Positions 8,471 through 36,748 of a stretch of 39,789 nt of DNA are shown here, piece by piece (position 1 is the first letter of the stretch; the number at the start of each line of letters is the position of its first letter). A program made the translations under genes and the position numbers. The notes under the pieces are model-generated. The model was given only the letters and a program-made list of their open reading frames with translations, searched no databases and was not told the DNA's origin. Source of the stretch: Armatimonadota bacterium (GTDB taxonomy: Bacteria > Armatimonadota > Abditibacteriia > CG2-30-59-28); contig JACQGJ010000414.1 in assembly GCA_016199605.1 (NCBI GenBank), forward strand, positions 1 to 39,789, read 5' to 3'.

Positions 8471-10033
8471 TCACTGCCCCAGCGGTTTCATCGTGCAGGC
8501 AATCTGAAACTCGAAACGTTGTTGCCCCTCGGATTTCCCACCCGCGGATACAACCGCGGTCGTCGAGCGGCTATTGACGAGTCGGACTTCCGAAAACAGC
8601 CCCAGGTCCTCAAAGGTCCTCAAGGTGGCGGCGATATCCTCACTCGCCGGCGCGAGACCGTTCACGGTCACTTCCTTGTCCGTCTCACCCACCATCTCTG
8701 TAAACCAAACGTTTTTCGGTAGTTTGAGACTCAACCGACGAAGGGTTTCCAGCCATAGGTAGCTGCTGCGTCTGGCGTCTCGCGCCAAGGCCTCGATTTG
8801 CCTGGTATCGTTGAGCAATGGTTGAGAGCCCTTCTTGTCGGGCAGCGTCTGGCGCAATCGGTCCACCTGAGCTTCCAGGCCGTGCAGGCGATCTCTATTG
8901 AGGCCCAAATGCCGGTCGTAGGTTCGCCAGCCTGCCCAGGCAAGGCTGCCCAGAAGGAGAATCCCCAGAAAGACCCACGACCTCCGTCCCTGGCGCAATC
9001 GCCGAGAGGTCTGCTGGCTTCTTAAGAGATTGACCGACAGCCCCACGCCTTCGGTCTGAAGGGCAGCCGCAGTCGCCACGAAATACCGTTCCGGGTCGTC
9101 GATCGACACCCGGGACGAGCCTGACCTCACTGTAGAGGTGGCCCGGTGTCCAAGACTAACGGGCATATCTCGCCAGGGGTCCGCGAGGACCGTAGGCAAA
9201 ACCGTTCCCTCCGGCCCCAGCAACCCGCCGTTCATCTCTTTCAGGACTTCCTGGGCTTTCCTCCCGATCACCACGCATCCCTGAAGACTCCGGTCTTTCG
9301 TTGAAGAGCGGTATCCCATGAGAGTGCGACGCGCTTCCGCAACCAGTTGTTTGGGTGAGGTGGGTTCCACCGTTCTTGTAAGAAAAGTTCCCCCGCCATC
9401 ATAGACCGTCAGCGTGGCCTGGTTCGTATCAGCGTTCAGGATACTAACGGGAGATCCATCATCACTGCCGCCATTGCCGCTTTTCTGCGGCCACCAACGG
9501 GAGGCCAGATCTGCCGCCGCGAGAGAGCCCACCGTACAACTGGCCCTGCCACCGTCTACACTTTCAATGTAGGGCCGGGCGGCTTCGAAGTCCTCTTTCC
9601 TGACCATGGCGACCAACACCGGCGCCATCTTCTCTTCGCCTGTTTCGCCGACGGCAGACTTCTGTTCGGTCAACTGGCAGAAATCAGTCTGTAGATCGTG
9701 AGTTGGGAAGGGCACGTGTCGCTGCAGCTCGTATTGCAGCATCTGGCGGAGCGTCTCGGGCTCTGCGTGGGGCAGTTTCACTATTCGGGTGGCCGTGGAG
9801 GGGAAGGAGAGGCAAAAGTTCACCTTCAGCTTGCCCGCTGCAAGGCCAGTGCGGCTCGCGGCCTGTTTCAGGAAACCTCTGAGAGCGCGCACGGTCCGTT
9901 CCGGCTCCGGTCCCTCCGCAGGGAAGCACGCCACGTCGAGAACCTCCGCCGCACCGTTGTCGCGGCGTAAAGCCACCGCCCGGATCTCCTCGGGGGTTAT
10001 CTCAACACCCACTGTTACTTGATTACGAGCCAT
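8471..10033 (-). CDS. type IV pilus assembly protein, PilM-PilN fusion
   Basis: 520 aa. The N-terminal ~330 aa is actin/PilM-like (VGVEITPEEIRAVAL.., QMLQYELQRHVPFP). Then comes a VNLLRSQQ motif (PilN N-terminal INLLP-type peptide), a TM segment (SWVFLGILLLGSLAWAGW) and a PilN-like C-terminal domain. Confidence 0.7.
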   Translation of the reverse strand: MARNQVTVGVEITPEEIRAVALRRDNGAAEVLDVACFPAEGPEPERTVRALRGFLKQAASRTGLAAGKLKVNFCLSFPSTATRIVKLPHAEPETLRQMLQYELQRHVPFPTHDLQTDFCQLTEQKSAVGETGEEKMAPVLVAMVRKEDFEAARPYIESVDGGRASCTVGSLAAADLASRWWPQKSGNGGSDDGSPVSILNADTNQATLTVYDGGGTFLTRTVEPTSPKQLVAEARRTLMGYRSSTKDRSLQGCVVIGRKAQEVLKEMNGGLLGPEGTVLPTVLADPWRDMPVSLGHRATSTVRSGSSRVSIDDPERYFVATAAALQTEGVGLSVNLLRSQQTSRRLRQGRRSWVFLGILLLGSLAWAGWRTYDRHLGLNRDRLHGLEAQVDRLRQTLPDKKGSQPLLNDTRQIEALARDARRSSYLWLETLRRLSLKLPKNVWFTEMVGETDKEVTVNGLAPASEDIAATLRTFEDLGLFSEVRLVNSRSTTAVVSAGGKSEGQQRFEFQIACTMKPLGQ

Positions 10034-14276: not shown

Positions 14277-14533
14277 CTTCGGTGTGCACTTTGACCTCGC
14301 GCTGAGGTGCGATACCGTGATTCCTCAATCCCGGAATTCGAAGTCCTTTTTGCAGGCGTAACACGATCCATTCCGCGAGGACCTCCCGCAGTTCCTTCCG
14401 GCATTCCTCCAGCGTCTTGCCTGTTGCCCATGCGCCGCGCAATTCTCGGACCTCGCCATAGAAAGGCGCGTCGTCCTCGATCATTTCGTACCGGGCGCGC
14501 GGCTGAGGCTAATTCATTTAGGTAGTGGAACAT
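14277..14533 (-). pseudogene. HicB-family antitoxin-like gene, apparently frameshifted near its 5' end
   Basis: From ATG 14533 the frame reads MFHYLNELASAA... The antitoxin-like sequence continues in the neighbouring frame: ..ARYEMIEDDAPFYGEVRELRGAWATGKTLEECRKELREVLAEWIVLRLQKGLRIPGL.. (track ORF 14056..14484). Deleting one base in the GC run around 14491-14503 joins them. That frame then has no stop until 14056. Confidence 0.45.
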
Positions 14534-15071
14534 ACTTGTCTTGTCCTCCGCCTATAGGTTGTATGGTTCCCGTTTTCCCTCCACAGGCGCGAGCGGCTCC
14601 GATCAGAATCATGGTTGTTTGGTCCGTAACCGTTTCTCCTGACTTGCTGTGAGAGGCCACACTGCTCATGATTAGCGGCTCTCCATCTCGCAGCAGCAGC
14701 GATGTTTTCGCCAGACGTTGAGATACGCCTTGCTGTTTTCTTGTGGTCATGCGGACTTCAGCATCGACCGACAGTTTGTTGGAGTCCACGATGCGAACTG
14801 TCACATCAACATTCAAGTCGCATCCTTCTTTTGCGTCGGTCTTCGTTTGGATAGAGGCTGGTATTCCATCCATGGTCATCACACTTGGTTCGCTCAATGC
14901 TTTCGCTGTTCCAGTCTTCACGTCCAATTCAACCACTTTGAAGAACACCGTGATGTACTGCGGCGTCTCTTCGGCGGGAGCCGACGCCAATGAACCCGAG
15001 AGAGCTACCAACAACACGACAACTCCGAGTGAGGTTCCCCATCCGACGGTACGCGTAATCCCTTGAGCCAT
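14514..15071 (-). CDS. small exported protein with secretin-core-like sequence pattern
   Basis: 185 aa. Signal-like N-terminus (GTSLGVVVLLVALSGSLASA). The following blocks resemble the secretin domain core: ITVFFKVVELD, LSEPSVMTMDGIPASIQ, LNVDVTVRIVDSNKLSVDAEV, TSLLLRDGEPLIMSSV, TTMILIGA. The CDS call is firmer than the family call. Confidence 0.5.
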   Translation of the reverse strand: MAQGITRTVGWGTSLGVVVLLVALSGSLASAPAEETPQYITVFFKVVELDVKTGTAKALSEPSVMTMDGIPASIQTKTDAKEGCDLNVDVTVRIVDSNKLSVDAEVRMTTRKQQGVSQRLAKTSLLLRDGEPLIMSSVASHSKSGETVTDQTTMILIGAARACGGKTGTIQPIGGGQDKYVPLPK

Positions 15072-24759: not shown

Positions 24760-26052
24760 ATGCATCAGCGATCGCTTATAACTCAAGCCTTTCCAGCGTT
24801 GACGTCTGACGCTCGCCTCCTCTTCACCACTCGCGTCGCCCGGCTGTTTGCCTACGGCTTTCTGTCGGTCGTGCTCGTGCTCTACCTCGCCGAGGTGGGA
24901 TTGAGTGAGGCGCGGATTGGGGTGTTGCTCACCCTCACTCTCATCGGCGATACGGCCATCTCGTTGTGGATGACGACAAACGCCGACCGGATCGGCAGAC
25001 GCAAGATGCTCCTTGTCGGGGCGGGACTGATGCTGTTCGCCGGAGTGCTGTTCGCTCTCACCGGCAACTTCCTCCTTCTGGTGATAGCGGCAACTATCGG
25101 CGTCATCAGTCCCAGCGGCAATGAAGTCGGTCCGTTCCTATCCATCGAGCAGGCGGCGCTGTCGCAGACCGCTTCCGGCGAGCAGCGGACGCACGTATTC
25201 GCCTGGTATAATCTCGTCGGCTCCTTCGCCACTGCAGTCGGTTCTCTCGCGGGCGGGTCGCTCACTCAGCTCCTGCATTCCTCCGGGATAACTTCTTTGA
25301 ACAGCTACCGTGCGCCGGTGATCGGCTATGCCGCGGTCGGTATTCTGCTGGCGGCGTTGTTCGCTCGCCTCTCGCCCGCGGTGGAGGCTCCCGCGACCAA
25401 TCATCCGCCCGACTTCAAGACCCGGTTCGGGCTGCACCGGTCGCGCGGCGTGGTGTTCCGTCTGTCGGGGCTGTTCGCGCTGGACGCCTTTGCGGGAGGC
25501 TTTGTGTTGCAGAGCATGGTTGCCTACTGGTTCCACGTCCGCTTTGGCGTGGAACCCGCGGTGCTGGGGAGCATCTTCTTCGGGGCGAATGTCCTGGCAG
25601 GACTATCGGGGTTGGCGGCGGCGCGCATCGCCGCTCGCATCGGTCTCATCAACACGATGGTCTTCACCCACGTCCCGTCCAACGTGCTCCTGATCCTGGT
25701 TCCGCTGATGCCGAACCTTCCGCTGGCAATACTGGTGTTGCTGCTGCGGTTCAGCATTTCGCAGATGGACGTGCCGACACGCCAGTCCTACACGATGGCG
25801 GTGGTGGATCCTGATGAACGCTCCGCCGCCGCAGGCGTGACTGGTGTGGCTCGCACGACCGGAGCGGCGCTGTCTCCGATCATTGCCGGACCGCTGTTCG
25901 GTAACGCCGCCCTGCTGAGCGTTCCGTTCTTCCTGGCGGGGGGACTGAAGATCGTCTACGACCTGATGCTGTACCGCAACTTCCGCGCCCACAAGCCACC
26001 GGAGGAGGGGGGCCGTCTTTCGAGTCCGGACTTTGCGAAGGAGGACAGGTGA
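24760..26052 (+). CDS. MFS transporter
   Basis: 430 aa with repeated TM helices and the loop 2-3 motif NADRIGRRKML typical of the major facilitator superfamily. Confidence 0.85.
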   Translation: MHQRSLITQAFPALTSDARLLFTTRVARLFAYGFLSVVLVLYLAEVGLSEARIGVLLTLTLIGDTAISLWMTTNADRIGRRKMLLVGAGLMLFAGVLFALTGNFLLLVIAATIGVISPSGNEVGPFLSIEQAALSQTASGEQRTHVFAWYNLVGSFATAVGSLAGGSLTQLLHSSGITSLNSYRAPVIGYAAVGILLAALFARLSPAVEAPATNHPPDFKTRFGLHRSRGVVFRLSGLFALDAFAGGFVLQSMVAYWFHVRFGVEPAVLGSIFFGANVLAGLSGLAAARIAARIGLINTMVFTHVPSNVLLILVPLMPNLPLAILVLLLRFSISQMDVPTRQSYTMAVVDPDERSAAAGVTGVARTTGAALSPIIAGPLFGNAALLSVPFFLAGGLKIVYDLMLYRNFRAHKPPEEGGRLSSPDFAKEDR

Positions 26053-26196
26053 CGAATGTACTCAACCGAGGGTGGGCCGCGATTCCTCCTTGCAGCAGCA
26101 AGTCACTACCTTGCATTGCCTACGGGACAGGAACTACCTCGGCTAAAGACCTGCGACTAACCAGGCTTCTCCTGCGGTTTGAGCTGCGCCCGGCCT

Positions 26197-27387
26197 TCAT
26201 TTAATGACAACGATTGCCGTCTGCGGATTGAAGTCCTCCACCGAGACGAGATGCGGGTGCTGCAATCCTTGAGTCAACTTGCTGACCCGCTGCGGGACAT
26301 ACATCTCCAATTCGGGCAGTGTGACCACACCGTCTTGATTAGCATCTGCCGACCCCCTGAAGGCTTCCATCAGTGCAAGGGCAAACTGACTGTACCCCGC
26401 CCCGCCGTTCTCGGAGGACAACTCATCCCCTCTCGTCGCTGTGAGCAGGGCGATACCGGTATTTCTCATCGCTTGCGCGAGTTGCTCGCTGGTTGCCTGT
26501 CTGTCACCTAATCTCGCCCCTGCATGGCAGGCGTCGGCAAACAGGAGTTTCTTTGCGTAGATGCCGGTTAGCGTGTCGACCACTTGCTGCCACGCCACGC
26601 AAGTTCCCTCGATATCGTTGACCACCAATCCGCAAGGAGCGAGGTAGAGCTTGCCTTCCCTTTCCACTCCATGCGCGGAAAGGAATACCATGATCGTGTC
26701 CGAAGATTTCGCATCTTTGAGTTTGGCGAGGGCTTCCATGATGTTGGACTTGGTGGCTTTCGCGTCGGTCAGCACCATCGCGTGAACTCTGGTATACTGT
26801 TTGCCTTCCTGCTGTTGCATCAGAACGGCAAGCGCCTCTGCGTCTGTGGCAGCACAGGCAATGTCGTAGCGTAGGTTGCGGTGTTTGCTGATACCGACAC
26901 ACAGGAGGTGAAGATCGCTCGATATGGGCGTCACCTTCGCGTGGAGGACCTTGATCGTGACGTTGGTATCGTTGCCGTCGTCGTCACATACCGACGCACG
27001 GATCAGAATCTCCTTCTCCCCTTGGGGCAGTGGCACGTCAGTTACAAACTGGCGCCTAATCTTGTGTCCCGGGGGTACGTCCCTCGAGCTGGCAAGGATC
27101 GGCTTGGAGGGTGCGGTGATTGGCCTTGCGACGGACTCCGGGACAGGAATCCCGTTGACGAACAGTTTGAGCGCCTTTACACCTTTGTCGTCCGTCGCCT
27201 CAACCAGCACCCGCACCGTGCCTCCTGTGACCGCTTCATCGGGCTTGGGATTCAGAATCCTGCACGCGGGGGCAAGGCCACTTCCTTTTGGTTTCTCACC
27301 TTCTTGACCAAAGGCCGCCCGAAAAGCCCAAGCCAGCAGCACAACCACTGCCACCGATATCACCGCGAAAGTGCAATGATTCTTCAT
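26197..27387 (-). CDS. exported Ig-like + caspase-family (peptidase C14) protein
   Basis: GGAAGGAGGG lies 7 nt upstream of the ATG. Signal-like N-terminus (FAVISVAVVVLLAWAFRAAFG-QE). Ig-like segment (VRVLVEATDDKGVKALKLFVNG). Caspase fold with His in FLSAHG (codon 26673-26671) and Cys in FADACHAG (codon 26529-26527). EF-hand-type loop DANQDGVVTLPE. Confidence 0.85.
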   Translation of the reverse strand: MKNHCTFAVISVAVVVLLAWAFRAAFGQEGEKPKGSGLAPACRILNPKPDEAVTGGTVRVLVEATDDKGVKALKLFVNGIPVPESVARPITAPSKPILASSRDVPPGHKIRRQFVTDVPLPQGEKEILIRASVCDDDGNDTNVTIKVLHAKVTPISSDLHLLCVGISKHRNLRYDIACAATDAEALAVLMQQQEGKQYTRVHAMVLTDAKATKSNIMEALAKLKDAKSSDTIMVFLSAHGVEREGKLYLAPCGLVVNDIEGTCVAWQQVVDTLTGIYAKKLLFADACHAGARLGDRQATSEQLAQAMRNTGIALLTATRGDELSSENGGAGYSQFALALMEAFRGSADANQDGVVTLPELEMYVPQRVSKLTQGLQHPHLVSVEDFNPQTAIVVIK

Positions 27388-27449
27388 TAATGAACCCTCC
27401 TTCCTTTCATCACCTTGTCATTCCGTCATCTCTCATTCGATCATCTCGG

Positions 27450-30400
27450 TCAGTTCACCCTCACCAGCGTCGTCTCCGGGTTGAAGTCTCTGACGGAGAC
27501 GATGTGCGGGTGCTGAGCACCTTTTGTCACCTCGGTCACTCGCTTCGGTGCATAATTCAGGAGCTCGGACAACGTAACTCCGCCATCACTGTTGGTGTCA
27601 GCCTTGCCCCACAGGGCTTCCAGCAGCCCTACCGTGAAAGCCCCATGACCGAGCTCCTTCTCCTCGAAGGAAAACTCCTCCCCTTGCGACGAGGCAATGA
27701 GGGCGACGCCCGACCGCCGTGTCGCTTCCACCATCTGCTCACTCGTCGCCTGCCGCTCGCCTAACTTCGCTCCAGAATGACACGCATCGGCAAACAGCAA
27801 CTTCTTCGCGTAGATGTTCGACAGCGTCGCCAGCACTTCCTCCCACGGGAGGCAGGTGCTGGCGAGGGCGTCCGTGGAGACTTCGTGCGTCGCAAAGTAG
27901 AATTTGCCCCGCGCCTCGCCAGGAATGGATTTCCCGTTGGAGGAGACGGCAGTGCTCTGCACGCCGTGACCGGAGAGAAACACCATCACGGTGTCGGCTG
28001 GGGTGGCAGACTTCAACTCGCCCAGGGCGTCGCGGATATTCTCCTTGGTTGCTCTGTCGTCAGTCAAGAGGGTCGTATGGACCTTGGAGTATCGTTTCCC
28101 CTCCTGCGCTTTCATCACCTCGGCAATCGACTCCGCATCCTGAGCGGCGAAGGAGAGGTTGTAATCGTGATTGCGATATCTGTTCACGCCGACACAGAGA
28201 ACATACAGTTTGCCCAGCATCGGCTTCTCGTTCGGGCGGTGAATCGTGACCACTGCGTCCGACTTGTTCAGCTCGTCATCATAGACCACTGCTCGGATCA
28301 GACACTCCTTTTCACCCGGGGGTAGAGATAGATTGGCCGTGAAAGTGCGCATCACCTTATGGTTTTCCCGGATGTTCACCGCCCCATCGAGAATCGGTTT
28401 GATCTCTCCTCCCTCCGGCCTGGTGACAGATTCAGGCACGAGAACACCGTTCACGTACAGCTTCAATTCGGTCACCGTCTTGTCGTCCGTCGCCTCAACA
28501 CTCACCTTCACGGAATTGCCTGAGAGTTTTTCCTCCCCCTTTGGACTTACGAACCGGCACCCCGGCGCAATCCGCGCTAACGTTAGCGGCTCCTCCGTAA
28601 TCGCCTCCCCTCGCAACGCCTTTCGAGCAAGGTCGGGGCGACGGAAGGTCTCCTCAAACCGCCAGAAGGGCACAAGCTCATTGCCAAAGCGCCATTTGAA
28701 AAGGTTGTCCGCTCCTTCAGAGCAAGTGTAGTAACCCTCTGGGGTGAAAAACACCCAGAACCGCTGGGGTCCGTAAGGTCCAGCGGGCGCGGGTATCCCC
28801 ATGAGGGTACCCAGAAGACGGCGGCGTTCCACATCCCATACACCAAGGGCGCCGTCGGAGTTGCCAATGAGAACTCGCCGCCCGTCCGCAGAGAAGGAGA
28901 GCCAATTGGGGCGATCTCCCTGGACTTTGAGGGACGCCTTTTCCTCCCCGGTCTCAACATCCCAAAACCTGATGGTGTTGTCCCAGCTCGCAGTTGCGAC
29001 CATTCGACTTTTTGGTGAGAAACAGGCGGTGGCTGCCTGGTCCAACGGATTGCCAAGGGATCGCGTAGGTTCACCGGTGGCCGGGTCCCACAGCTTCGCG
29101 CCGCCAAGACCGGCGGTCAACACCCACCGCCCGTCCGGGGAGAAGCAACAGGTGGAATAGAGACCCACTATCGGGTCTCGCTCCAAGGTCTTGAGGAGTT
29201 CTCCCGTCTGCGCATTCCAGAGGTTAACCTCGCCGCCACGGACTCCTCCTTGTTGAAGCCCCGCGGAACTCACGAGACGTTGGCTGTCCGGCGAGAACGC
29301 CAAACCCGTGATCCGGTTTGTGTGACCGCGCAACGTATGCCGGAGCTGGCCCGTCGAGGTGTCCCACAGCCGGATCTCCAGCGTGTTGCGCCTCTCCTCG
29401 AAGTCTCCCCCCACCCCGCCGCACACGGCAGCGAAGGCGCGACCGTCGGGTGAGTAGGCAACCAATCCGACGTCGTGCCCGCATTCCCGGAAAGTACGCT
29501 CATGCTCGCCGGTTGCCGCATTCCAGAAAAGGACCTCTCCGTTGAAGTTGTCAGGCCGGTCGAGGAGCACAGAGCCTGCGATAGTCTTCCCATCCGGCGA
29601 AACGGTTACAGCGATGAGGCGCCTGTCTGGAGGCTGCACCAGTGGACACAGCCCCTGGCCGCGCACAACATCCCACACCAACCCCCCTCCGAGCGCGCTG
29701 CCTGTCACCAGGCGCTGCTCGGCCGGGAACAATGCGGGTGCGCACACTTCTGAGTTCTGGGCCTTGAACGCGGGACGGACGGAGCCCTCGCCAACCTCCC
29801 ATATCGCTCTCCCGGGGGCGGGACAAGAGAACGCCTCACCACCCCCGGTGGTCAGCCAGCGTCCGCGGGGTGAGAAGGCCAGGGTGCCTACGTCGCGTCG
29901 TGGACGAGCGACCTGTCCCAGCAACCTCCCGCTTTGGAGGTCCCAAAGGCGGACCACCCCGGACTTCTCGTGCTCACCCCTGAAAAGATGGCTCGCGGCC
30001 AGCAACCCCCCATCGCTGCTAACTGCCATCGAGAGGTGTGTAGTCTCCAGCGCTCCGGGATCCTCCGCCTGCAAGGAGTGAAGCTGGTTACCCGAAGCAG
30101 CGTCATAGATGCGAACAGCCGTCGAGAGGTATAGAGCAGCCATCAGGCGTGAGCCGTCGGGACTGACTGCAACCTGGGCGACGCCTTCTGAGATCGGCGT
30201 GCTCGGCCTCCGCAGATCGGCCGTGGTGACATCCCATACGCTTAACCCCCCTCCCTGCCGCCGACCGCGGGGCTGATTGCTGCACGCGACATAGAGCGTC
30301 TTCCCGTCGGGGGAGAAGGCAAGGCTGTCCACCGGCCCCGGATGGCCACTCAAAGACTTTAGAGGCTTCCATAGAGTCGCGTCCCACAGTGTGACCGTAG

Positions 30401-30890
30401 CGTCCCCGCCGCCACTGGCCAGGAGCCGTCCGTCAGGCGACCACGCCAAGGCGAAGATGCCAAAGGGAAAGTGGCGCTGTAGGGCATGGAGTTGATCACC
30501 TGTCCGGGGGTCCCATAGCCGGAGGGTGCTGTCCAACGGCCCTCCGGCACTGGCAAGGGTCTTTCCATCGGGCGAAAAGGCCACCGCCATCACCCGGTCG
30601 CGATGGCCCGCGAGCGTGCGAAGCAACTCGCCCGTCTCGCCAACCCACAGCTTTACCGACTGGTCCTTGCTCACACTCGCCAAAAGCCGACCATCGGGGG
30701 AGTAGGAAAGCGCGTTGACGACATCGCTGTGCCCCACCTGCAGGGCCAACTCAGGACGATCCTTGGGGAGGGAGTCAGGCGCATCGGCGGCATGGCTGGT
30801 CGGCCTGAGGAATGCAACCACCTCCAACGCAAACCACACAAGGAGAGACACTATCATCCGTCCAGCAGTCGTCCGGCAGGTGAGTGACAC
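27450..30890 (-). CDS. exported WD40 (14 blades) - Ig-like - caspase-family (peptidase C14) protein
   Basis: GTG 30890 has GGAGG 7 nt upstream, inside the 16-nt gap after the pseudopilin stop. N-terminal RMIVSLLVWFALEVVAFLRPTSHA-AD is signal-like. Fourteen units of ..SPDG..L.....D..++LWD.. occupy aa ~45-700 (nt ~28791-30758). An Ig-like segment covers aa ~775-890. In the C14 domain (aa ~894-1146), His is in FLSGHG (27968-27966) and Cys in FADACHSG (27782-27780). Confidence 0.9.
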   Translation of the reverse strand: MSLTCRTTAGRMIVSLLVWFALEVVAFLRPTSHAADAPDSLPKDRPELALQVGHSDVVNALSYSPDGRLLASVSKDQSVKLWVGETGELLRTLAGHRDRVMAVAFSPDGKTLASAGGPLDSTLRLWDPRTGDQLHALQRHFPFGIFALAWSPDGRLLASGGGDATVTLWDATLWKPLKSLSGHPGPVDSLAFSPDGKTLYVACSNQPRGRRQGGGLSVWDVTTADLRRPSTPISEGVAQVAVSPDGSRLMAALYLSTAVRIYDAASGNQLHSLQAEDPGALETTHLSMAVSSDGGLLAASHLFRGEHEKSGVVRLWDLQSGRLLGQVARPRRDVGTLAFSPRGRWLTTGGGEAFSCPAPGRAIWEVGEGSVRPAFKAQNSEVCAPALFPAEQRLVTGSALGGGLVWDVVRGQGLCPLVQPPDRRLIAVTVSPDGKTIAGSVLLDRPDNFNGEVLFWNAATGEHERTFRECGHDVGLVAYSPDGRAFAAVCGGVGGDFEERRNTLEIRLWDTSTGQLRHTLRGHTNRITGLAFSPDSQRLVSSAGLQQGGVRGGEVNLWNAQTGELLKTLERDPIVGLYSTCCFSPDGRWVLTAGLGGAKLWDPATGEPTRSLGNPLDQAATACFSPKSRMVATASWDNTIRFWDVETGEEKASLKVQGDRPNWLSFSADGRRVLIGNSDGALGVWDVERRRLLGTLMGIPAPAGPYGPQRFWVFFTPEGYYTCSEGADNLFKWRFGNELVPFWRFEETFRRPDLARKALRGEAITEEPLTLARIAPGCRFVSPKGEEKLSGNSVKVSVEATDDKTVTELKLYVNGVLVPESVTRPEGGEIKPILDGAVNIRENHKVMRTFTANLSLPPGEKECLIRAVVYDDELNKSDAVVTIHRPNEKPMLGKLYVLCVGVNRYRNHDYNLSFAAQDAESIAEVMKAQEGKRYSKVHTTLLTDDRATKENIRDALGELKSATPADTVMVFLSGHGVQSTAVSSNGKSIPGEARGKFYFATHEVSTDALASTCLPWEEVLATLSNIYAKKLLFADACHSGAKLGERQATSEQMVEATRRSGVALIASSQGEEFSFEEKELGHGAFTVGLLEALWGKADTNSDGGVTLSELLNYAPKRVTEVTKGAQHPHIVSVRDFNPETTLVRVN

Positions 30891-30906
30891 AGGTCAACCT
30901 CCACAC

Positions 30907-31593
30907 TTACCCAGAGCTGTCCCATCGGTGCCCAAGATCCGTTGGCTGCGAGGTCGGATCGTCATCCCGGTCGAACCACCCGGGATCATTGCTGACGCCT
31001 CGCCCCGTGAAGCCTCGATAGGCCTTCACATGTCCATCCACCCACAACGCATTGACCATCCGCACGCCGGGGTTGTTGTTCCAGAATCCCGCCCGGTTCA
31101 GATGCCAGTCATGCAACTCATGAATGATGATTTGTTCCGCGGGGCGACAGAAATCACCGTCCGTTGGTCCACCGTTGTTGTATAGGGAGTAGTAGTCAAT
31201 CACCGCGCGCCATGCGTAGGACACGAGGGCATTTGGATCGCTGACGTTGTGGGGGGCTGGATCGCTCGGGCACCAGTAGAGGAGGGCATTTTTCATGTAG
31301 GAGACGAGCAACGAGGGGTAGCCCCTCAATCTGATCCCGTAAGTAGGTTCCACGTACCAGGGCGTAGTGGTCGAGCCCGTCAGCAGCGAACTCGGGTAGA
31401 CGTCGTCGTAGTCGTCCACATACATGGCAAGGGCCAGCCCGATCTGCTTCATATTGGACAGGCACACGGCGGAGCGCGCCTTCTCTCGCGCCCTCGCGAA
31501 CACCGGGAACAGAATCGCCGCAAGAATCGCGATGATTGCGATTACCACCAGAAGCTCAATCAATGTGAAGCCGCCACGTCTCATTTGCCTCAT
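30907..31593 (-). CDS. prepilin-type N-terminal cleavage/methylation-domain pseudopilin (DUF1559-like)
   Basis: [40 protein letters not shown]... The C-terminal ..[11 protein letters not shown] keeps the DG but lacks the His of H-X9-DG. An alternative ATG at 31584 has better SD spacing. Confidence 0.85.
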
Positions 31594-31599
31594 CCCTTC

Positions 31600-32250
31600 T
31601 TATTGTCCGGTTACACTCCACATGCACTTGCCCGTCTTGCAGATCACGGCCCCGGGCTTCAGCCACTTGACGTGGCCATCGAAGAAGCAGTAGTTGGCGC
31701 CACGATTATGCCGCGTCGCCGCCTCAGCGCCTTCGCGGTCCAGACCATGTTCATTGGGTCCCCACCAAAGCCACGCGCCGTATTCGCCCTCAGAGAGCCA
31801 GATGCACTCGCTGGGGTACTCGATGAGGGTCTCGTTGTAGATCCAGAAGCTGGGGTCCGGCGGGCCCGGGTCTCCGTGTACAGCGTTCATACAGTAGCTC
31901 GAGCCCTGGTATTGGGTCGGGTCGGAACTGAGGTCGAAGCCGCCGCTGAAGGGGCTATCGGGCTTGTGGCTGGGGCACCGGAAGATCTGGGTGTTCTTGC
32001 AGTAGGGCAGCACTGCCGAACGCCAGCTATAGTTCATGGGTTCGGCACCGTACCCCCCAACGAGCAGGGCTTCATAGTCTTGGGCATAGGCCATCGTCGC
32101 CAACCCAAGTTGCTTGAGGTTGGAGAGGCAACTCGCTTGCCGTGCCTTCTCTCGCGCCCTCGCGAACACCGGGAACAGAATCGCCGCCAGGATCGCGATG
32201 ATCGCGATCACCACCAACAACTCGATCAACGTGAAACCGCGTGTACGCAT
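31600..32250 (-). CDS. prepilin-type pseudopilin, H-X9-DG family
   Basis: [49 protein letters not shown].. and C-terminal [20 protein letters not shown]. Confidence 0.87.
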
Positions 32251-32273
32251 GACAGTTCCTCACTTTCCGCGCG

Positions 32274-32972
32274 TTAGCCGCCCTCAATCGCCCACCAACA
32301 CTCCCCGCTCTGGCACTTGATTCCCCCGGCCTTGAGCCACTTCACGTGGCCGTCACAGAAGCCGAAGTTCCCGCCCTCGTTGTGCCGGGCCACGCCGTTG
32401 TTCGCCGTGGGAGCGGCTCCGAAGACAAAACCGTGGCTATTGTCCACGCCGGGGGGACCGAAAGAGTGATACCCGTCCGTCTCTCCGAGGAAGATGCACT
32501 GGGCCGGCATCTCGATGGCCCCGAGTGCCTGGCCGCCAGTGGGCGTCGGCGCTCCCGCCAGTTGGTGGACGATGCTCTGACCATACCCGGCGTTTGAGCC
32601 GTAATCCATGTCGCCTTCGCCAGGGCCTGAGCCCCTGCCGAAGATCGTCTGCGATGCCGGGAACCGCTTGCTGGGACAGAAGTAGATCCCGGTATTATTG
32701 ACATAGGGCAGGATGGCGATACGCCAGGTGTAATCTCCCCACGTCTGCGAACCGTACGGGGCGCCCGCGTCATACCACTCCATGGGCAGCAGTTCGTCAT
32801 AGTCCTGTGCATAGGACAGCACCGCGACCAGAAGCTGCTTCTCATTGGCCAGACAACTCGTCTGCCTTGCCTTCTCCCGCGCCTTGGCAAAGACGGGAAA
32901 GAGGATCGCCGCCAGAATGGCGATGATCGCGATCACCACCAGAAGCTCAATCAGCGTGAAGCCGCGCTTTAT
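32274..32972 (-). CDS. prepilin-type pseudopilin, H-X9-DG family, without a canonical start codon for its leader
   Basis: The track ORF starts at GTG 32939, inside the hydrophobic helix (MVIAIIAIL..). The same frame is open upstream to TGA 32990-32988 and encodes ..(I)[12 protein letters not shown]... The only start-like codon before the GFTLIE motif is ATA 32972-32970, 9 nt after AAGGAGG. C-terminal [19 protein letters not shown]. Confidence 0.65.
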
Positions 32973-33033
32973 CTTGTCATCCCTCCTTCAGGATTCAGCG
33001 ACACACCACGGCCGCCCGCCCGGCCGGCCGCCA

Positions 33034-33672
33034 TCAGTCCTCCGCTGCGGTGAACCAGCTCGTCTTGCCGACCATGGACGCCAGCTTGTACCACTTGGCA
33101 TGACCATCCACGAAGGCGTAGTTGCTGCCCTCATTGTGCCTGGAACTGATGGGGATGATCTGTTGGGCTGCGTCATAGAAGTACGGCTCATAGATCTGGA
33201 AGGGGACCCACTGCGGGTTCAGTTCGGCGATCATGACCGTCATCGTCGGCTCTGCCACGTCGCCCAGCCCAATCGTGGGGAGTTCAGGATGCAGGTAGCC
33301 ACACCCCATCCCGCTCACCTTGGGCCAGTACCAACTCCCGACGTTCCAGCCGTAGCTGAGCACCAGACCGCCTCGGGAGTCCGAGGGACAGCGGAACACG
33401 TGGGCGTTCTTTGCGTAGGGTTGCACCACGTCGGCCCAGGACTCCCAGGAGGATGGGCCCAACGCGCGCAGACAGACCCGGGGCAGCGTGTCCTCGTAGT
33501 CCTCGGCGTACATCAGCACCGCAAGGGTAACCTGCTTGACGTTGGACAAGCACACGGTCTGCCTTGCCTTCTCCCGCGCCCTCGCGAAGACAGGAAACAG
33601 AATCGCTGCAAGGATCGTGATGATTGCGATCACAATCAGCAATTCGATAAGCGTGAAACCCCTACGAGCCAT
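33034..33672 (-). CDS. prepilin-type pseudopilin, H-X9-DG family
   Basis: ATG 33672 (GGAGGA 7 nt upstream) gives [48 protein letters not shown]... C-terminal [19 protein letters not shown]. The track start, TTG 33690, is less likely. Confidence 0.87.
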
Positions 33673-34043
33673 CGGCCTTTCCTCCACCAAATCCGAGGAT
33701 TGAACCTGTAAAGGAATTCAGCGGCGGTCAACCGACCGTCCTGCCCGTTGGTGTCACCGACGGGATCAATCCTCGCAGTATACACGCTTTGAAGCAGTCT
33801 ACTTCAAATGACTGCAGTCGAATGGGACTGCTTCCCTGTGGTTGGCGATAGCAGGCTTGGCAATGGTGCGAGCCGTGGCAGAATTGATGGCATCCATCAG
33901 GGCTCTGCGACCCGATCAGTTTGAGACGTCGTGCAAGCGCCAGCTACTCGGATATATGACCATTTCGTGGCGTGATTATGCTGGATTCCAGTGAATCTGT
34001 CAAAAGGATATCTGAGGAGGAATTGCGTTAGTTCTGATTCTGA

Positions 34044-34072
34044 TTGCTTCCGGTTGGGAATGCTGATATACT
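34044..34072 (+). promoter_or_regulatory. sigma70-like promoter candidate for the cyclase-STAND gene
   Basis: TTGCTT (34044-34049), a 17-nt spacer, then TATACT (34067-34072), within an AT-richer intergenic region about 55 nt upstream of ATG 34127. Confidence 0.3.
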
Positions 34073-34126
34073 TGCGGCGCGTTCGGGGGATTGGGTTGCG
34101 ATCCTCCTTGATGAGTCGAGTCCGCC

Positions 34127-36748
34127 ATGTCCTCAAGCATTATCACAATGGTCTTTTCCGACCTGGTCAGCAGCACCTCGATCAAGATGCAGCTTCCGGG
34201 CGGGGACATCTCCGAACGAAATCGCGTCTACTTCGACACGATCCTCATGCCTCACCGCCGGCGAGTGCAATCCAGCCTGGAGCGATATGGCGGGAGAGTG
34301 GTGAAGACGGAGGGGGATGCCTTTTTCATTGTGTTCGGCGACGCGGTGCGAGCGGCGCAGTGGTCCATCGCTCTTCACCTCGACCATGCGGAGTACCCCA
34401 TCGACACGCCAGTGGGGCCGCTGCAAGCGCGGATTGGCATGCACACCGGAGCGCCTCTGGCAGATCAGGATGACTTCATTGGACACGATGTGGACTATGC
34501 CTCACGCGTCGGAGACCTGGCCAACGGCGGGCAAGTCGTGCTGTCGGAAGCCACCGCCGCGCTGGCGCGGGCGGCCCACATCTCAGGCGTTGAACTCCAC
34601 CCCCACGGCGAGAGAGACCTAAAAGGCGTCGGACGCACTCCGATCTTCGAGCTTCTCTACGCGGGCAGGCAGCCTCAGCCTCTGAGGGAACCTCTTCTGA
34701 CTCCCACCAATCTTCCCATCTCGGACACGCGCTTCATTGACCGGGAGATCGAGGTCTCTGAGGGTTGCGATCTGCTGCGGGACCCGGGAACGCGTCTGCT
34801 CACCCTTACGGGCTTTGCCGGTCTTGGGAAGACCCGCGTCGCCCACCAGATTGCGAAGCGCTGCGTAGACAGGTTCGCGGATGAGTTCCCGGAGGGTGTG
34901 TGGTGGGTGGAATTGGAGGACCTACAGGAAAACAGCGAGGTGATTCCTCGCATTGCCACGGACCTCGGAATCGATCTGCGGCCGCAACCTCCCGTGGCCG
35001 ACCAGGTTCTCGCTTTTCTCCGCGAGCGACAGATGGTGCTGGTTCTTGATAACTCAGAGCAGATTCCGAACGTTGCTGAGGTCGTCAAACGCTTACTTAC
35101 GGCGGCGCCCTCCCTCAAGTGTGTCATCACTTCACGACGCACCTTGGGCCTCCAGACGGAGCATGTCCTGGAGTTGCAGCCCTTGTCTTCCACTCATGCG
35201 GTGGAGCTGTTTGTGAGCCGAGCCCGAGCGCGCTCCAGCGATTTCGGGATGACGCCGGACAACGCTGTGGATATTCAGCAGCTTTGCGCCGTTCTCGAGG
35301 AAGTGCCGCTTGCCATTGAGCTGGCGGCTTCTCGCATCGTGGTGATGGAGGCCGGACAGATGCTGCAGCGCATGGACCGGCAAGTTGAGTTTCTCAAGTC
35401 CCGAGAGCCCGACCTGCGCCCACGACAGCGGGCCCTGCGCGCAGCCATCGACTGGTCTTACGAGTTGTTGACGGAGGACGACAAGAAGCTCTTGGCTGAG
35501 GTGTCGGTTTTTGCGGGAGGGTTCACGTTGGAGGATGCTGAGTCGGTATGCGACACCTTCGACGTTCTGGAGGGAGTTGAGGAGTTACGCCTTCAATCGC
35601 TCCTGCGGGCCGGTACGGATCCGGTGACACGGCGTCGCAGGTTCTCCATGCTGGCTGCGGTTCGCGCCTATGCCGAGGACAGACTGCGCGTGCGCCCGGA
35701 GCAGGAAAGAGCCGTGCGGCTTCGCCATGCGGAGCACTACCTTTCCATCGCGCAGGATTGCCTCTATAAGCTCCGCACCTCCGAAGAAGCAGCCGCGTCG
35801 GAGAAGATGGAGACGGAGCTTGCGAATCTCCGGGCAGCGTTTGAGTGGATCCAGAAGCCGGAGCATCACAGGCTGTGCGCGGAATTGTCCCTCGCTGTAG
35901 GCGCCTTCCTTCAACGGCGTGGTTTCACGCTGGAAGCCATGGCGTATTTCCACACAGGTCTTGATTCCGCTCGCGCGCTGGGACAGGAGGGGACCGTGTT
36001 GGCCGCGAAGATTCAGCGCGAACACGCGGGGCTGCACCACGATCGGTTTGAGTGGGCCGACGCAAGGAGAGACGCGATTGAAGCTCTTAACATCTTTGAG
36101 CAGTTGCGCCAACCGGAGGGGATCGCCAGCGCGTACAACCTCTTGGGGCTCATCGCAAAAGGCGAGACGGATTTCAGCGAGGCTCGACGCAGCTTCTCGG
36201 CGGCGATGAAACAATTCGAGGCCTGTGATGACAAGACCGGCGCTGCGATTGTCTACAACAACCTTGGTCTCGTGGAATACACGGACACGCAGGGCGATAA
36301 GGGGAAAGCTCTCCGCTGCTGGCAGGAGTCCTTGCGTCTATCCCGTGAGCAGGGCAACCACCGCGGCGTGGCAGAAGCGCTAATCAATCTGGGAGTCCTG
36401 GCTCAGGACCAGAAGCGCACCGACGAAGCGTACCATTACTACGCCGAAGCCCTCGGGGTCGAGAGGAAGCTCCGGCATTCTTTCGGTGTGGGGCGCGCTC
36501 TCAACAACCTTGCAGAGATCGCCGAGGCGAGGGGCGAGCTTCGCAAGGCACATCGCCTGTATGCCGCTGCGGCCTGTCTGTTTGACAGAGTGGCATCCCC
36601 CTATGAATGTCACGCGAGGACGAGACTGGTCCACGTCCGGGAGGCGCTTGGACTTACCGAAGAACCCGCAGGTTCTGTCCACCAACCCCTCAAAGACAAG
36701 ACCCTCGACGAGTTGCTTGAATGGGCGCAAGAAGAGAGCGCCGCCTGA
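34127..36748 (+). CDS. class III adenylate/guanylate cyclase domain - NB-ARC-type STAND ATPase - TPR repeat protein
   Basis: 873 aa. The cyclase domain covers aa ~4-178 (ITMVFSDLVSST; VVKTEGDAFFIVFGD; RIGMHTG; GHDVDYASRV). The NB-ARC-like module has Walker A GFAGLGKT (34811-34834), Walker B MVLVLDNSE (35033-35059), ITSRR, LQPLS..AVELF, EEVPLAIELAA and ..WSYELL..LLAEVSVFAGGFTLEDAE. TPR-like repeats cover aa ~520-840 (..AYNLLGLIA.., ..VYNNLGLVE.., ..ALINLGVLA.., ..ALNNLAEIA..). Confidence 0.87.
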   Translation: MSSSIITMVFSDLVSSTSIKMQLPGGDISERNRVYFDTILMPHRRRVQSSLERYGGRVVKTEGDAFFIVFGDAVRAAQWSIALHLDHAEYPIDTPVGPLQARIGMHTGAPLADQDDFIGHDVDYASRVGDLANGGQVVLSEATAALARAAHISGVELHPHGERDLKGVGRTPIFELLYAGRQPQPLREPLLTPTNLPISDTRFIDREIEVSEGCDLLRDPGTRLLTLTGFAGLGKTRVAHQIAKRCVDRFADEFPEGVWWVELEDLQENSEVIPRIATDLGIDLRPQPPVADQVLAFLRERQMVLVLDNSEQIPNVAEVVKRLLTAAPSLKCVITSRRTLGLQTEHVLELQPLSSTHAVELFVSRARARSSDFGMTPDNAVDIQQLCAVLEEVPLAIELAASRIVVMEAGQMLQRMDRQVEFLKSREPDLRPRQRALRAAIDWSYELLTEDDKKLLAEVSVFAGGFTLEDAESVCDTFDVLEGVEELRLQSLLRAGTDPVTRRRRFSMLAAVRAYAEDRLRVRPEQERAVRLRHAEHYLSIAQDCLYKLRTSEEAAASEKMETELANLRAAFEWIQKPEHHRLCAELSLAVGAFLQRRGFTLEAMAYFHTGLDSARALGQEGTVLAAKIQREHAGLHHDRFEWADARRDAIEALNIFEQLRQPEGIASAYNLLGLIAKGETDFSEARRSFSAAMKQFEACDDKTGAAIVYNNLGLVEYTDTQGDKGKALRCWQESLRLSREQGNHRGVAEALINLGVLAQDQKRTDEAYHYYAEALGVERKLRHSFGVGRALNNLAEIAEARGELRKAHRLYAAAACLFDRVASPYECHARTRLVHVREALGLTEEPAGSVHQPLKDKTLDELLEWAQEESAA

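Follow-up and report, generated by a model that had tools for sequence, protein, structure and literature searches.

Predicted Sec-exported caspase-fold proteases beside a STAND gene and a DUF1559 prepilin array in an Armatimonadetes contig

The window analyzed here is the entire contig of an Armatimonadetes metagenome-assembled genome (MAG) with a length of 39,789 bp. It harbors six co-directional minus-strand open reading frames (ORFs) at 26197-33672, which encode four prepilin-type proteins of the DUF1559 family (pil1 to pil4) and two caspase-fold proteases (casp1146 and casp396), and a divergent gene for a STAND NTPase. The locus is best filed as a variant of the STAND-linked caspase-fold systems, with exported immunoglobulin-like (Ig) domain-bearing proteases and, in one small lineage, a pilin array. 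With a probability of roughly 0.55, we regard it as a STAND-linked module of Sec-exported proteases, duplicated in this genome, into which a pilin array was inserted. The recurrent conserved neighbor of the protease gene within the close clade of homologs is a predicted cyclase/TIR-NB-ARC-TPR STAND gene, and not the pilin genes. A preliminary description of the six genes, derived from the sequence alone, had missed this STAND gene, which lies just outside the interval reported there; what it observed is confirmed and its interpretation is upheld in part, and it is corrected here in that the exported WD40-caspase is common, the pilin adjacency belongs to a small clade only and the informative neighbor is located outside the reported coordinates. 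The pairing of a STAND NTPase with a caspase-fold protease is a theme common to bacterial immunity and eukaryotic cell death, and to our knowledge sensor and protease meet in the cytoplasm in every characterized case. If the linkage of a STAND protein with exported proteases holds, a signal would cross the membrane or the coupling would run via gene regulation only, and either would widen the known design space.

The genes and domains of the locus are located in the window as follows:

34127-36748, plus strand: STAND NTPase, 873 amino acids (aa), with a class III nucleotide cyclase domain (aa 5-171), NB-ARC (aa 216-446) and TPRs (about aa 645-845)

33975-34003, minus strand: candidate for a sigma-70-like promoter (TTGACA-17-CATAAT), located some 300 nt ahead of pil1 (prediction only)

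33034-33672, minus strand: pil1, DUF1559/H-X9-DG prepilin-type protein, 212 aa, MARRG|FTLIELL; Pfam N_methyl and SBP_bac_10, TIGR02532 and TIGR04294

32274-32972, minus strand: pil2, DUF1559/H-X9-DG prepilin-type protein, 232 aa, apparent ATA start; Pfam and NCBIfam matches

31600-32250, minus strand: pil3, DUF1559/H-X9-DG prepilin-type protein, 216 aa; Pfam and NCBIfam matches

30907-31593, minus strand: pil4, DUF1559 prepilin-type protein, 228 aa, His of H-X9-DG lost, no TIGR04294 match

27450-30890, minus strand: casp1146, with signal peptide, 14 WD40 blades, conserved linker, Big_7 Ig domain and C14 caspase domain

30789-30890, minus strand: casp1146 aa 1-34, predicted Sec signal (heuristic only; position as in homologs)

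28791-30737, minus strand: casp1146 aa 52-700, 14 WD40 blades, presumably two propellers (Pfam WD40 and beta-propeller families; 14 repeat signatures)

28581-28778, minus strand: casp1146 aa 705-770, conserved linker TPEGYYxCSEGAD...FEETFRRPD (no Pfam family)

28236-28565, minus strand: casp1146 aa 776-885, Ig-like domain, Big_7 (Pfam; aligns to the Ig domain of casp396)

27453-28211, minus strand: casp1146 aa 894-1146, caspase (C14) domain with His975 and Cys1037 (Pfam; alignment)

26197-27387, minus strand: casp396, with signal peptide (aa 1-27, AFG|Q), Big_7 Ig domain (aa 38-150) and C14 domain (aa 157-396; His239, Cys287)

The six minus-strand genes, their coordinates and the intergenic gaps of 61, 23, 6, 16, and 62 nt agreed with the preliminary description when the ORFs were checked. 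Shine-Dalgarno sites were found ahead of every start examined in the array. The site of pil1 reads GGTGGAGG, the ATG of casp396 is preceded by GGAAGGAGGG, and the GGAGG which had been reported within the 16-nt gap between pil4 and casp1146 is indeed located 7 nt ahead of the GTG at 30890. The promoter candidate matches the consensus at 11 of 12 positions and represents the top site within 25900-34300. Terminator-like matches in the array are weak and exclusively intragenic, and RNA folding downstream of casp396 revealed no terminator-like structure (z 0.40). Because of the close spacing, the Shine-Dalgarno sites, the promoter-like site and the lack of convincing terminators, the six genes are probably transcribed as one unit from a promoter upstream of pil1; the operon suggested earlier thus stands as a prediction. 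The six-gene arrangement is more than chance. For pil2, no ATG, GTG, or TTG precedes the GFTLIELL motif (32939-32990) and the sole candidate is an ATA at 32972 with GGAGGG 8 nt upstream. Either pil2 uses a rare non-canonical start, or an ATG was misread as ATA. An island gained by horizontal transfer was considered, and composition did not point to one.

The STAND protein of the window matches the Pfam families PF00211 (Guanylate_cyc), PF00931 (NB-ARC), and TPR_12 above threshold and in that order. Its cyclase domain aligns to Ma1120 and retains the metal-binding Asp pair as well as the Lys and Arg. In the following loci, STAND genes of this type lie beside pilin or protease genes:

L091 (GC 59%): closest relative, with a WD40-Ig-caspase; cyclase-NB-ARC-TPR STAND divergent from a pilin gene as in the window, 42.6% identity over 880 aa to the window STAND

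L094 (GC 71%): WD40-caspase, 8 nt gap, Guanylate_cyc-NB-ARC on the same strand, 43.5% identity to the window STAND

L001/L002 (GC 36%): WD40-Ig-caspase, 240 nt gap, TIR-NB-ARC-TPR, 33% identity over 659 aa to the window STAND (E 2e-90)

L100: STAND P0083, 50% identity; 21 nt downstream a 1356-aa protein with signal peptide, TPRs, Big_7 and Peptidase_C14

L101: STAND P0087; 33 nt downstream a TPR-CHAT protein with the signal MTLRNFR...TWA|Q

L102: STAND P0088, flanked by two TPR-CHAT proteins with signal peptides

The Ig-caspase module of the L100 protease is 48-49% identical to both caspases of the window. When the closest homologs of the STAND protein were taken as the starting point, each of the three look-ups led to an adjoining exported clan-CD protease (3/3). 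The linkage also appears specific, as a STAND homolog lies within 10 kb in only one of 80 distant caspase loci.

The evidence also bears on an incidental adjacency, in which a tandem array of an expanded DUF1559 family happened to lie beside an unrelated caspase pair, with pilins, caspases and STAND being functionally unlinked. Such a coincidence is unlikely in our view. It would agree with the scarcity of both neighbors in 80 distant caspase loci, none of which has a prepilin gene nearby and only one of which has a STAND homolog within 10 kb. The heavy expansion of both the pilin family (TIGR04294) and the STAND family is equally in line with it, and so is the alignment of the intergenic regions between pil1 and the STAND gene of the window and L091, which revealed no common motif. 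However, the STAND gene recurs in five loci with GC contents from 36% to 71% and was encountered from the caspase as well as from the STAND side, gaps of 8, 21, 33, and 240 nt were found at four STAND-protease junctions, and the pilins recur in two arrangements. Since the wider flanks differ among the loci, the adjacency of STAND and protease is not simple inherited synteny, which likewise argues against a coincidence.

According to the preferred reading, that of the STAND-linked exported protease module, the core pair, which comparative genomics brings out, consists of a cytoplasmic cyclase-NB-ARC-TPR STAND protein and exported proteases composed of signal peptide, repeats, Ig and C14 domain. 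The protease gene is duplicated in this genome, giving the long WD40 form casp1146 and the short casp396, and the four pilin genes lying between STAND and proteases are probably co-transcribed with the caspase genes. The proteases would be active in the periplasm or on the surface of the cell, where the WD40 and Ig parts may bind a target and the His/Cys dyad may cleave it. The STAND protein, in turn, may sense a cytoplasmic ligand via its TPRs and emit a cyclic nucleotide monophosphate signal, or a TIR product in the relative L001. This signal could regulate how the envelope proteases are produced or deployed, or the STAND protein could respond to protease products. The coupling might be transcriptional, might run across the membrane or might depend on a STAND protein reading the products of the exported proteases. 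The module would belong to the conflict or surveillance systems and not to housekeeping functions, and the pilins are read as a lineage-specific accessory that could serve as cargo adaptors, scaffolds or substrates.

Several observations weigh against this reading. Because STAND and protease are assigned to different compartments, direct activation as in the STAND/TIR-caspase systems cannot apply as such, and we infer the functional link from gene linkage alone. The STAND gene of the window is divergent, lies 3.2 kb apart from casp1146 and is not operonic. The pairing as a whole is based on about seven independent loci, mostly on short metagenomic contigs with truncated genes, and the contigs of L084 and L085, two further relatives, end too early for a STAND gene to be seen. 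Chance adjacency of STAND and caspase genes is not negligible because of the very large size of the STAND family: the cyclase-NB-ARC-TPR family yielded 5030 matches with E <= 1e-40 among the candidates scored, the named ones deriving from Armatimonadota, and the L091 STAND is no closer to that of the window than dozens of other database proteins are. In the window cyclase (34127-34650) an Asp replaces the catalytic transition-state Asn (GHDVDYASR vs. GRNVAMAAR in Ma1120) and its activity is therefore uncertain; the STAND homolog of L091 retains this Asn. PADLOC assigned generic "caspase" and "TPR" models to the locus and no specific system. Finally, signal peptides were judged by a heuristic of our own with lenient and strict rules, and not by SignalP.

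All Pfam families which the preliminary description had named for the encoded proteins, i.e., Peptidase_C14, WD40, N_methyl, and SBP_bac_10/DUF1559, were matched. casp1146 carries WD40 and Peptidase_C14 as well as a Big_7 match at aa 776-824, and casp396 carries Big_7 and Peptidase_C14; the scores for PF00656 are 67.8 and 49.1 bits, respectively (cut-off 21.4). The 14 WD40 blades counted earlier correspond to 14 SPDG-type signatures in casp1146, spaced 42-53 aa apart. The linker of about 65 aa which follows them is conserved in P0002, L084, L091, P0012-P0020, and others. casp396 shares 48% identity with the last 373 residues of casp1146 and is therefore its tandem paralog without propellers. 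In both proteases the C14 dyad is intact, in accordance with the earlier claim: SGHG (H975) and DACHSG (C1037) in casp1146, SAHG (H239) and DACHAG (C287) in casp396. These motifs align to SGHG and DSCHSG of the yeast metacaspase Yca1 (4f6o), and the catalytic His and Cys are invariant across an alignment of 30 sequences. Between Ig and caspase domains, relatives carry variable tandem seven-residue repeats (GKPIVVD, AKPIIAT, GKPITTD), namely L084 (~3150-3330), L085, L091, L100, P0013, P0015, P0020, and P0204; at this place the window caspases have a single KPIL copy in a linker of variable length.

A direct sequence search of casp396 against the PDB gave no match, whereas a profile search and Foldseek did; Geobacter GSU0716 (3bij) was also among the PDB profile matches. 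The AlphaFold model of casp396 (mean confidence, pLDDT, 86.8) predicts an Ig sandwich followed by a caspase fold; residues 1-32 are of low confidence and include a predicted helix at 12-25. Top Foldseek matches of the model were MALT1 and the caspases 9, 8, 7, and 3 (E 1e-10 to 1e-6). With the paracaspase MALT1 (caspase and Ig3) the modeled protein shares the caspase-hemoglobinase fold (Foldseek E 1e-10, TM score ~0.47 over ~250 residues) and an Ig-like domain beside the protease domain. The two differ in that identity amounts to 15-17%, the Ig domain precedes the protease here, and MALT1 is intracellular.

The N-termini of both proteases point to export. casp396 starts with MKNH, followed by a hydrophobic core of 18 residues and AFG|Q, which has the appearance of a textbook Sec signal. 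In casp1146, an n-region MSLTCRTTAGR, an h-region MIVSLLVWFALEVVAFL and a c-region RPTSHA|A can be delineated; its core holds one Glu, so that it fails the strictest rule and passes the lenient one. The basic n-region, hydrophobic segment and AxA-like site described before are thus present in both proteins, with this reservation for casp1146. Every full-length member of the close clade (L084/P0205, P0204, P0206, and the L100 protein) possesses a signal-peptide-like N-terminus, and in the close clade as in casp1146 the signal directly precedes a conserved RPELALQ.GH motif opening the first blade. Among distant full-length homologs, 61 of 70 scored as signal-peptide-like by the lenient rule (background 45%) and 45 of 70 by the strict rule (background 27%); in several distant homologs, L015, L034, and L049 among them, the N-termini were read by eye as lipoprotein boxes. 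The STAND protein has no signal-peptide-like N-terminus by the same heuristic. As the comparison with relatives reveals conserved signal-like N-termini, which strengthens the case, there is a strong inference that the proteases are Sec-exported; they would then reside in the periplasm or on the cell surface.

The same N-termini bear upon a cytoplasmic death or defense effector, whose hydrophobic N-terminal segments would not be export signals and whose caspase would be activated by STAND/TIR directly or via a second messenger, in the manner of type IV Thoeris or an apoptosome-like complex. A TIR/cyclase generator beside a caspase-fold protease is the layout of type IV Thoeris (bioRxiv 10.1101/2024.10.24.620036) and also matches the conflict systems with STAND and caspase components described by Kaur et al. 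(PMC7159879). Furthermore, L001 is surrounded by genes for a type I restriction-modification S subunit, an insertion sequence (IS) element and an integrase, and the best, albeit weak, NCBIfam match of the proteases is "caspase, EACC1-associated type" (73-74 bits vs. a curated cut-off of 140). We nevertheless consider such an effector improbable, the least supported of the explanations weighed here: the signal-like N-termini are conserved in position and not in sequence across clade and family, lipoboxes occur in part of the distant members, Big_7 Ig domains are typically found in extracytoplasmic proteins, and no cytoplasmic sensor domain for nucleotide signals was found among the Pfam matches.

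Comparison with the described systems allows a more precise placement of the module. As in type IV Thoeris (bioRxiv 10.1101/2024.10.24.620036, PMC13243611), a gene for a nucleotide-signal generator adjoins a gene for a caspase-fold protease. L001 has a TIR domain as the generator, and the window, L091, L094, and L100 have a class III cyclase. Unlike in Thoeris, the generator forms the N-terminal domain of an NB-ARC-TPR STAND NTPase, and the protease has a Sec signal, WD40 or TPR repeats and an Ig domain and is predicted to be located outside the cytoplasm. The systems of Kaur et al. (2020; PMC7159879) resemble the locus in combining a STAND NTPase with repeat sensors and a caspase-superfamily peptidase, cyclase and TIR interchange at the same position, and some versions there are membrane-associated; no EACC1, vWA-MoxR, or effector-associated-domain component was seen here. 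The terms "signal peptide," "secreted," and "pilin" were not found in that publication (PMC7159879). In type IV Thoeris and the systems of Kaur et al., sensor and protease share the cytoplasm, which is apparently not so in the window. With regard to the features that characterize Thoeris and STAND-caspase systems, a generator or NTPase gene beside a caspase-fold effector was found across genomes (window, L091, L094, L100, and L001; CHAT in L101 and L102), and a cytoplasmic location of both sensor and protease was not found with the signal heuristic.

The preliminary description had set the exported WD40-caspase apart from those usually discussed as cytoplasmic effectors; that export is unusual in such proteins could not be upheld. 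The caspases of the window gave no exact match in the contig index. A first word-based homolog search with casp396 resulted in 9 matches, and a linker-Ig-caspase profile was needed to find the close clade, which comprises about eight representatives with 43-55% identity. In a full HMMER scan of 1.84 billion cluster representatives, 8,792 relatives passed a threshold of E <= 1e-10, and 236 passed E <= 1e-30. Among the best 150, the majority measure 900-1,500 aa and end with the caspase module, and most of the first 40 long relatives among the matches listed look signal-peptide-like by eye. The 80 distant loci sharing this architecture derive from Bacteroidota, Planctomycetota, Nitrospirota, Proteobacteria, Acidobacteriota, and other phyla. 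A survey from 2012 had already catalogued prokaryotic metacaspases that carry WD40 repeats, and others whose N-terminal helix may be a signal peptide; WD40 was its commonest partner domain with 10.9% of the sequences (Asplund-Samuelsson et al., 2012; PMC3501461). Because of this large multi-phylum family and the 2012 catalogue, an exported WD40-caspase is ordinary. With the catalogued metacaspases and orthocaspases (PMC3501461), the proteins of the window have in common the C14 His/Cys dyad, a signal-like N-terminus and, in casp1146, the WD40 repeats. Their clade differs in the fixed order of signal peptide, repeats, linker, Big_7 Ig and C-terminal caspase domain and in the recurrent STAND neighbor.

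Clustering of the neighbors across the 80 distant loci revealed no universal partner. DUF4384 proteins were the most frequent neighbor family with 10 of the 80 loci (L006, L007, L009, L010, and six others), and a cluster of ABC-transporter-type proteins occurred near the caspase in another 10. In L007 and L010 the DUF4384 gene is located directly upstream of the caspase gene. At least two caspase-module genes were present in seven distant loci (L006, L019, L022, L055, L057, L076, and L081), several of them adjacent, and therefore a duplication like that of the window recurs in the family. A search of plasmids led to distant caspase genes only (26-35% identity).

All four pilins match N_methyl and SBP_bac_10 (DUF1559, PF07596) of Pfam, with PF07963 and TIGR02532 above the cut-offs, and carry the class III signal GFTLIELL(V/I)VIAII with a short basic leader and a hydrophobic N-terminal helix. 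The C-terminal H-X9-DG motif is kept in pil1 to pil3 (TIGR04294 above cut-off), and its His is lost in pil4. The four proteins are 36-47% identical to each other over their full lengths and nearly identical within the first 40 residues. The C-terminus of pil4 is extended by a stretch enriched in Asp, Pro, and Ser which is absent from the other three. With the class III signal G|FTLIELL, the DUF1559 domain and, for pil1 to pil3, the H-X9-DG motif, they conform to the DUF1559/H-X9-DG family (PF07596, TIGR04294), and they depart from it in forming a tandem array of four paralogs inside a STAND-caspase locus of an Armatimonadetes MAG. Models of Gsp pseudopilins matched their N-terminal helix only, and all below the cut-offs. 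They are the sole four prepilin-type genes on the 39.8-kb contig, the remaining ~32 kb containing none. In the literature no function was found for the DUF1559 family, and the few papers mentioning DUF1559 concern planctomycetes; searches on DUF1559, H-X9-DG, Armatimonadetes prepilins, and signal-peptide CHAT/cyclase pairs gave no description of this arrangement.

Conservation of the pilin-caspase adjacency, for which the preliminary description had called as a check, was confirmed in part. Three relatives, L091, L084, and L085, have prepilin genes no more than ~1.2 kb away from the caspase gene: in L091 the caspase is followed by two small genes (s1 and s2) and a convergent DUF1559 pilin, in L084 by s1, s2, and at least two convergent pilins, and in L085 by one small gene (a homolog of s1) and one convergent pilin. 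These three loci represent one shared synteny block, so that together with the layout of the window two independent pilin arrangements exist. The adjacency is absent from all 80 distant loci (80/80). DUF1559 is abundant in planctomycetes; in the 1.27 Mb around the distant homologs, including 169 kb from 12 planctomycete loci, no prepilin-type gene was detected. A lone "pilin" match in the distant locus L078 turned out to be a zinc-ribbon membrane protein. Neither L001 nor L100-L102 (50 kb) contains a prepilin gene. The association of pilins and caspases is thus likely non-random, but narrow and confined to a small clade, and not general. The small proteins s1 and s2 (118-170 aa; L091 2722-3601, L084 4383-5318, L085 2410-2892) have no signal peptide, belong to no Pfam or PADLOC family and have no homologs in the window or the other loci.

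This distribution, together with the packing in the window, leaves some room for pilins and proteases as one functional unit along the lines of the preliminary description, in which a pseudopilus or type II-like machine secretes, presents or scaffolds the caspase, or the pilins are its substrates, and the STAND protein is a regulator or a bystander. We rate this as possible, and clearly below the STAND-linked protease module. It is favored by the tight packing with the Shine-Dalgarno site in the 16-nt gap and by the recurrence of DUF1559 pilins beside the closest relatives L091, L084, and L085 in a second arrangement, as well as by the lack of prepilins in ~82 kb of other, probably related, contigs and in the 1.27 Mb around distant homologs. 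Type II secretion cargo carries Sec signals, as the proteases do, and PilM/N-like and secretin-like ORFs are encoded on the same contig. On the other hand, the three relatives count as one block, which leaves two independent arrangements only, their pilins are convergent to the caspase and not co-transcribed with it, and the clade members L001 and L100 manage without a pilin gene. The locus lacks an assembly ATPase, a platform protein and a prepilin peptidase.

In Klebsiella, the cargo gene pulA lies beside the type II secretion genes pulC-O. Like there, pseudopilin-type genes adjoin genes of Sec-exported enzymes in the window; unlike there, secretin, ATPase, platform and prepilin peptidase genes are missing from the locus and the pilins are of the DUF1559 type and not GspG-K. 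Neither a GspD secretin nor a GspE ATPase, a GspF platform protein or GspG-K pseudopilins were found between 24 and 39 kb of the window, and genes for a prepilin peptidase, an assembly ATPase or a platform protein were not found in a survey that covered this contig. A PilM/PilN-like fusion (8471-10033, minus strand) and an ORF with a weak secretin match (14514-15071, minus strand) are located amid cell-envelope glycosylation genes at a distance of 16-25 kb from the pilin array.

A still broader proposal would unite all parts in a three-part envelope surveillance system, in which DUF1559 pseudopilins deliver or present exported WD40/TPR-Ig-caspases that are coupled across the membrane to a cytoplasmic cyclase/TIR-STAND. 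The STAND protein might then sense peptides released by the proteases or switch the proteases on via a nucleotide second messenger. This appears doubtful to us, somewhat more so than a merely incidental adjacency. If true, it would provide the first function for the DUF1559 family and the first STAND-caspase pair split between two compartments; a reproducible link between DUF1559 pilins and exported proteases would by itself give the first experimental handle on the DUF1559/H-X9-DG family.

Some of the homologous loci showed further peculiarities. The contig of L091 opens with a Nextera adapter (1-50, AGATGTGTATAAGAGACAG), and the WD40-caspase gene runs off that end with its N-terminus missing. 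In L094 the WD40-caspase is frameshifted at ~870-960 and WD40 repeats continue upstream in another frame, which indicates an assembly error or a pseudogene. P0002 (L001-L003) comprises 670 aa with four or five blades and no signal peptide. In L003 its gene is preceded by a DDE transposase gene, and in L001 it lies near the restriction-modification, IS element and integrase genes mentioned above; this copy is probably 5'-truncated and part of a mobile or defense island. In L099 (1-12280) a distant WD40-caspase gene directly follows a type VI secretion cluster (TssG, ClpV, Hcp, two VgrG, FHA, PAAR) and is preceded by genes for a WD40 protein and a DUF4384 protein. The L099 protein may be a caspase associated with type VI secretion.

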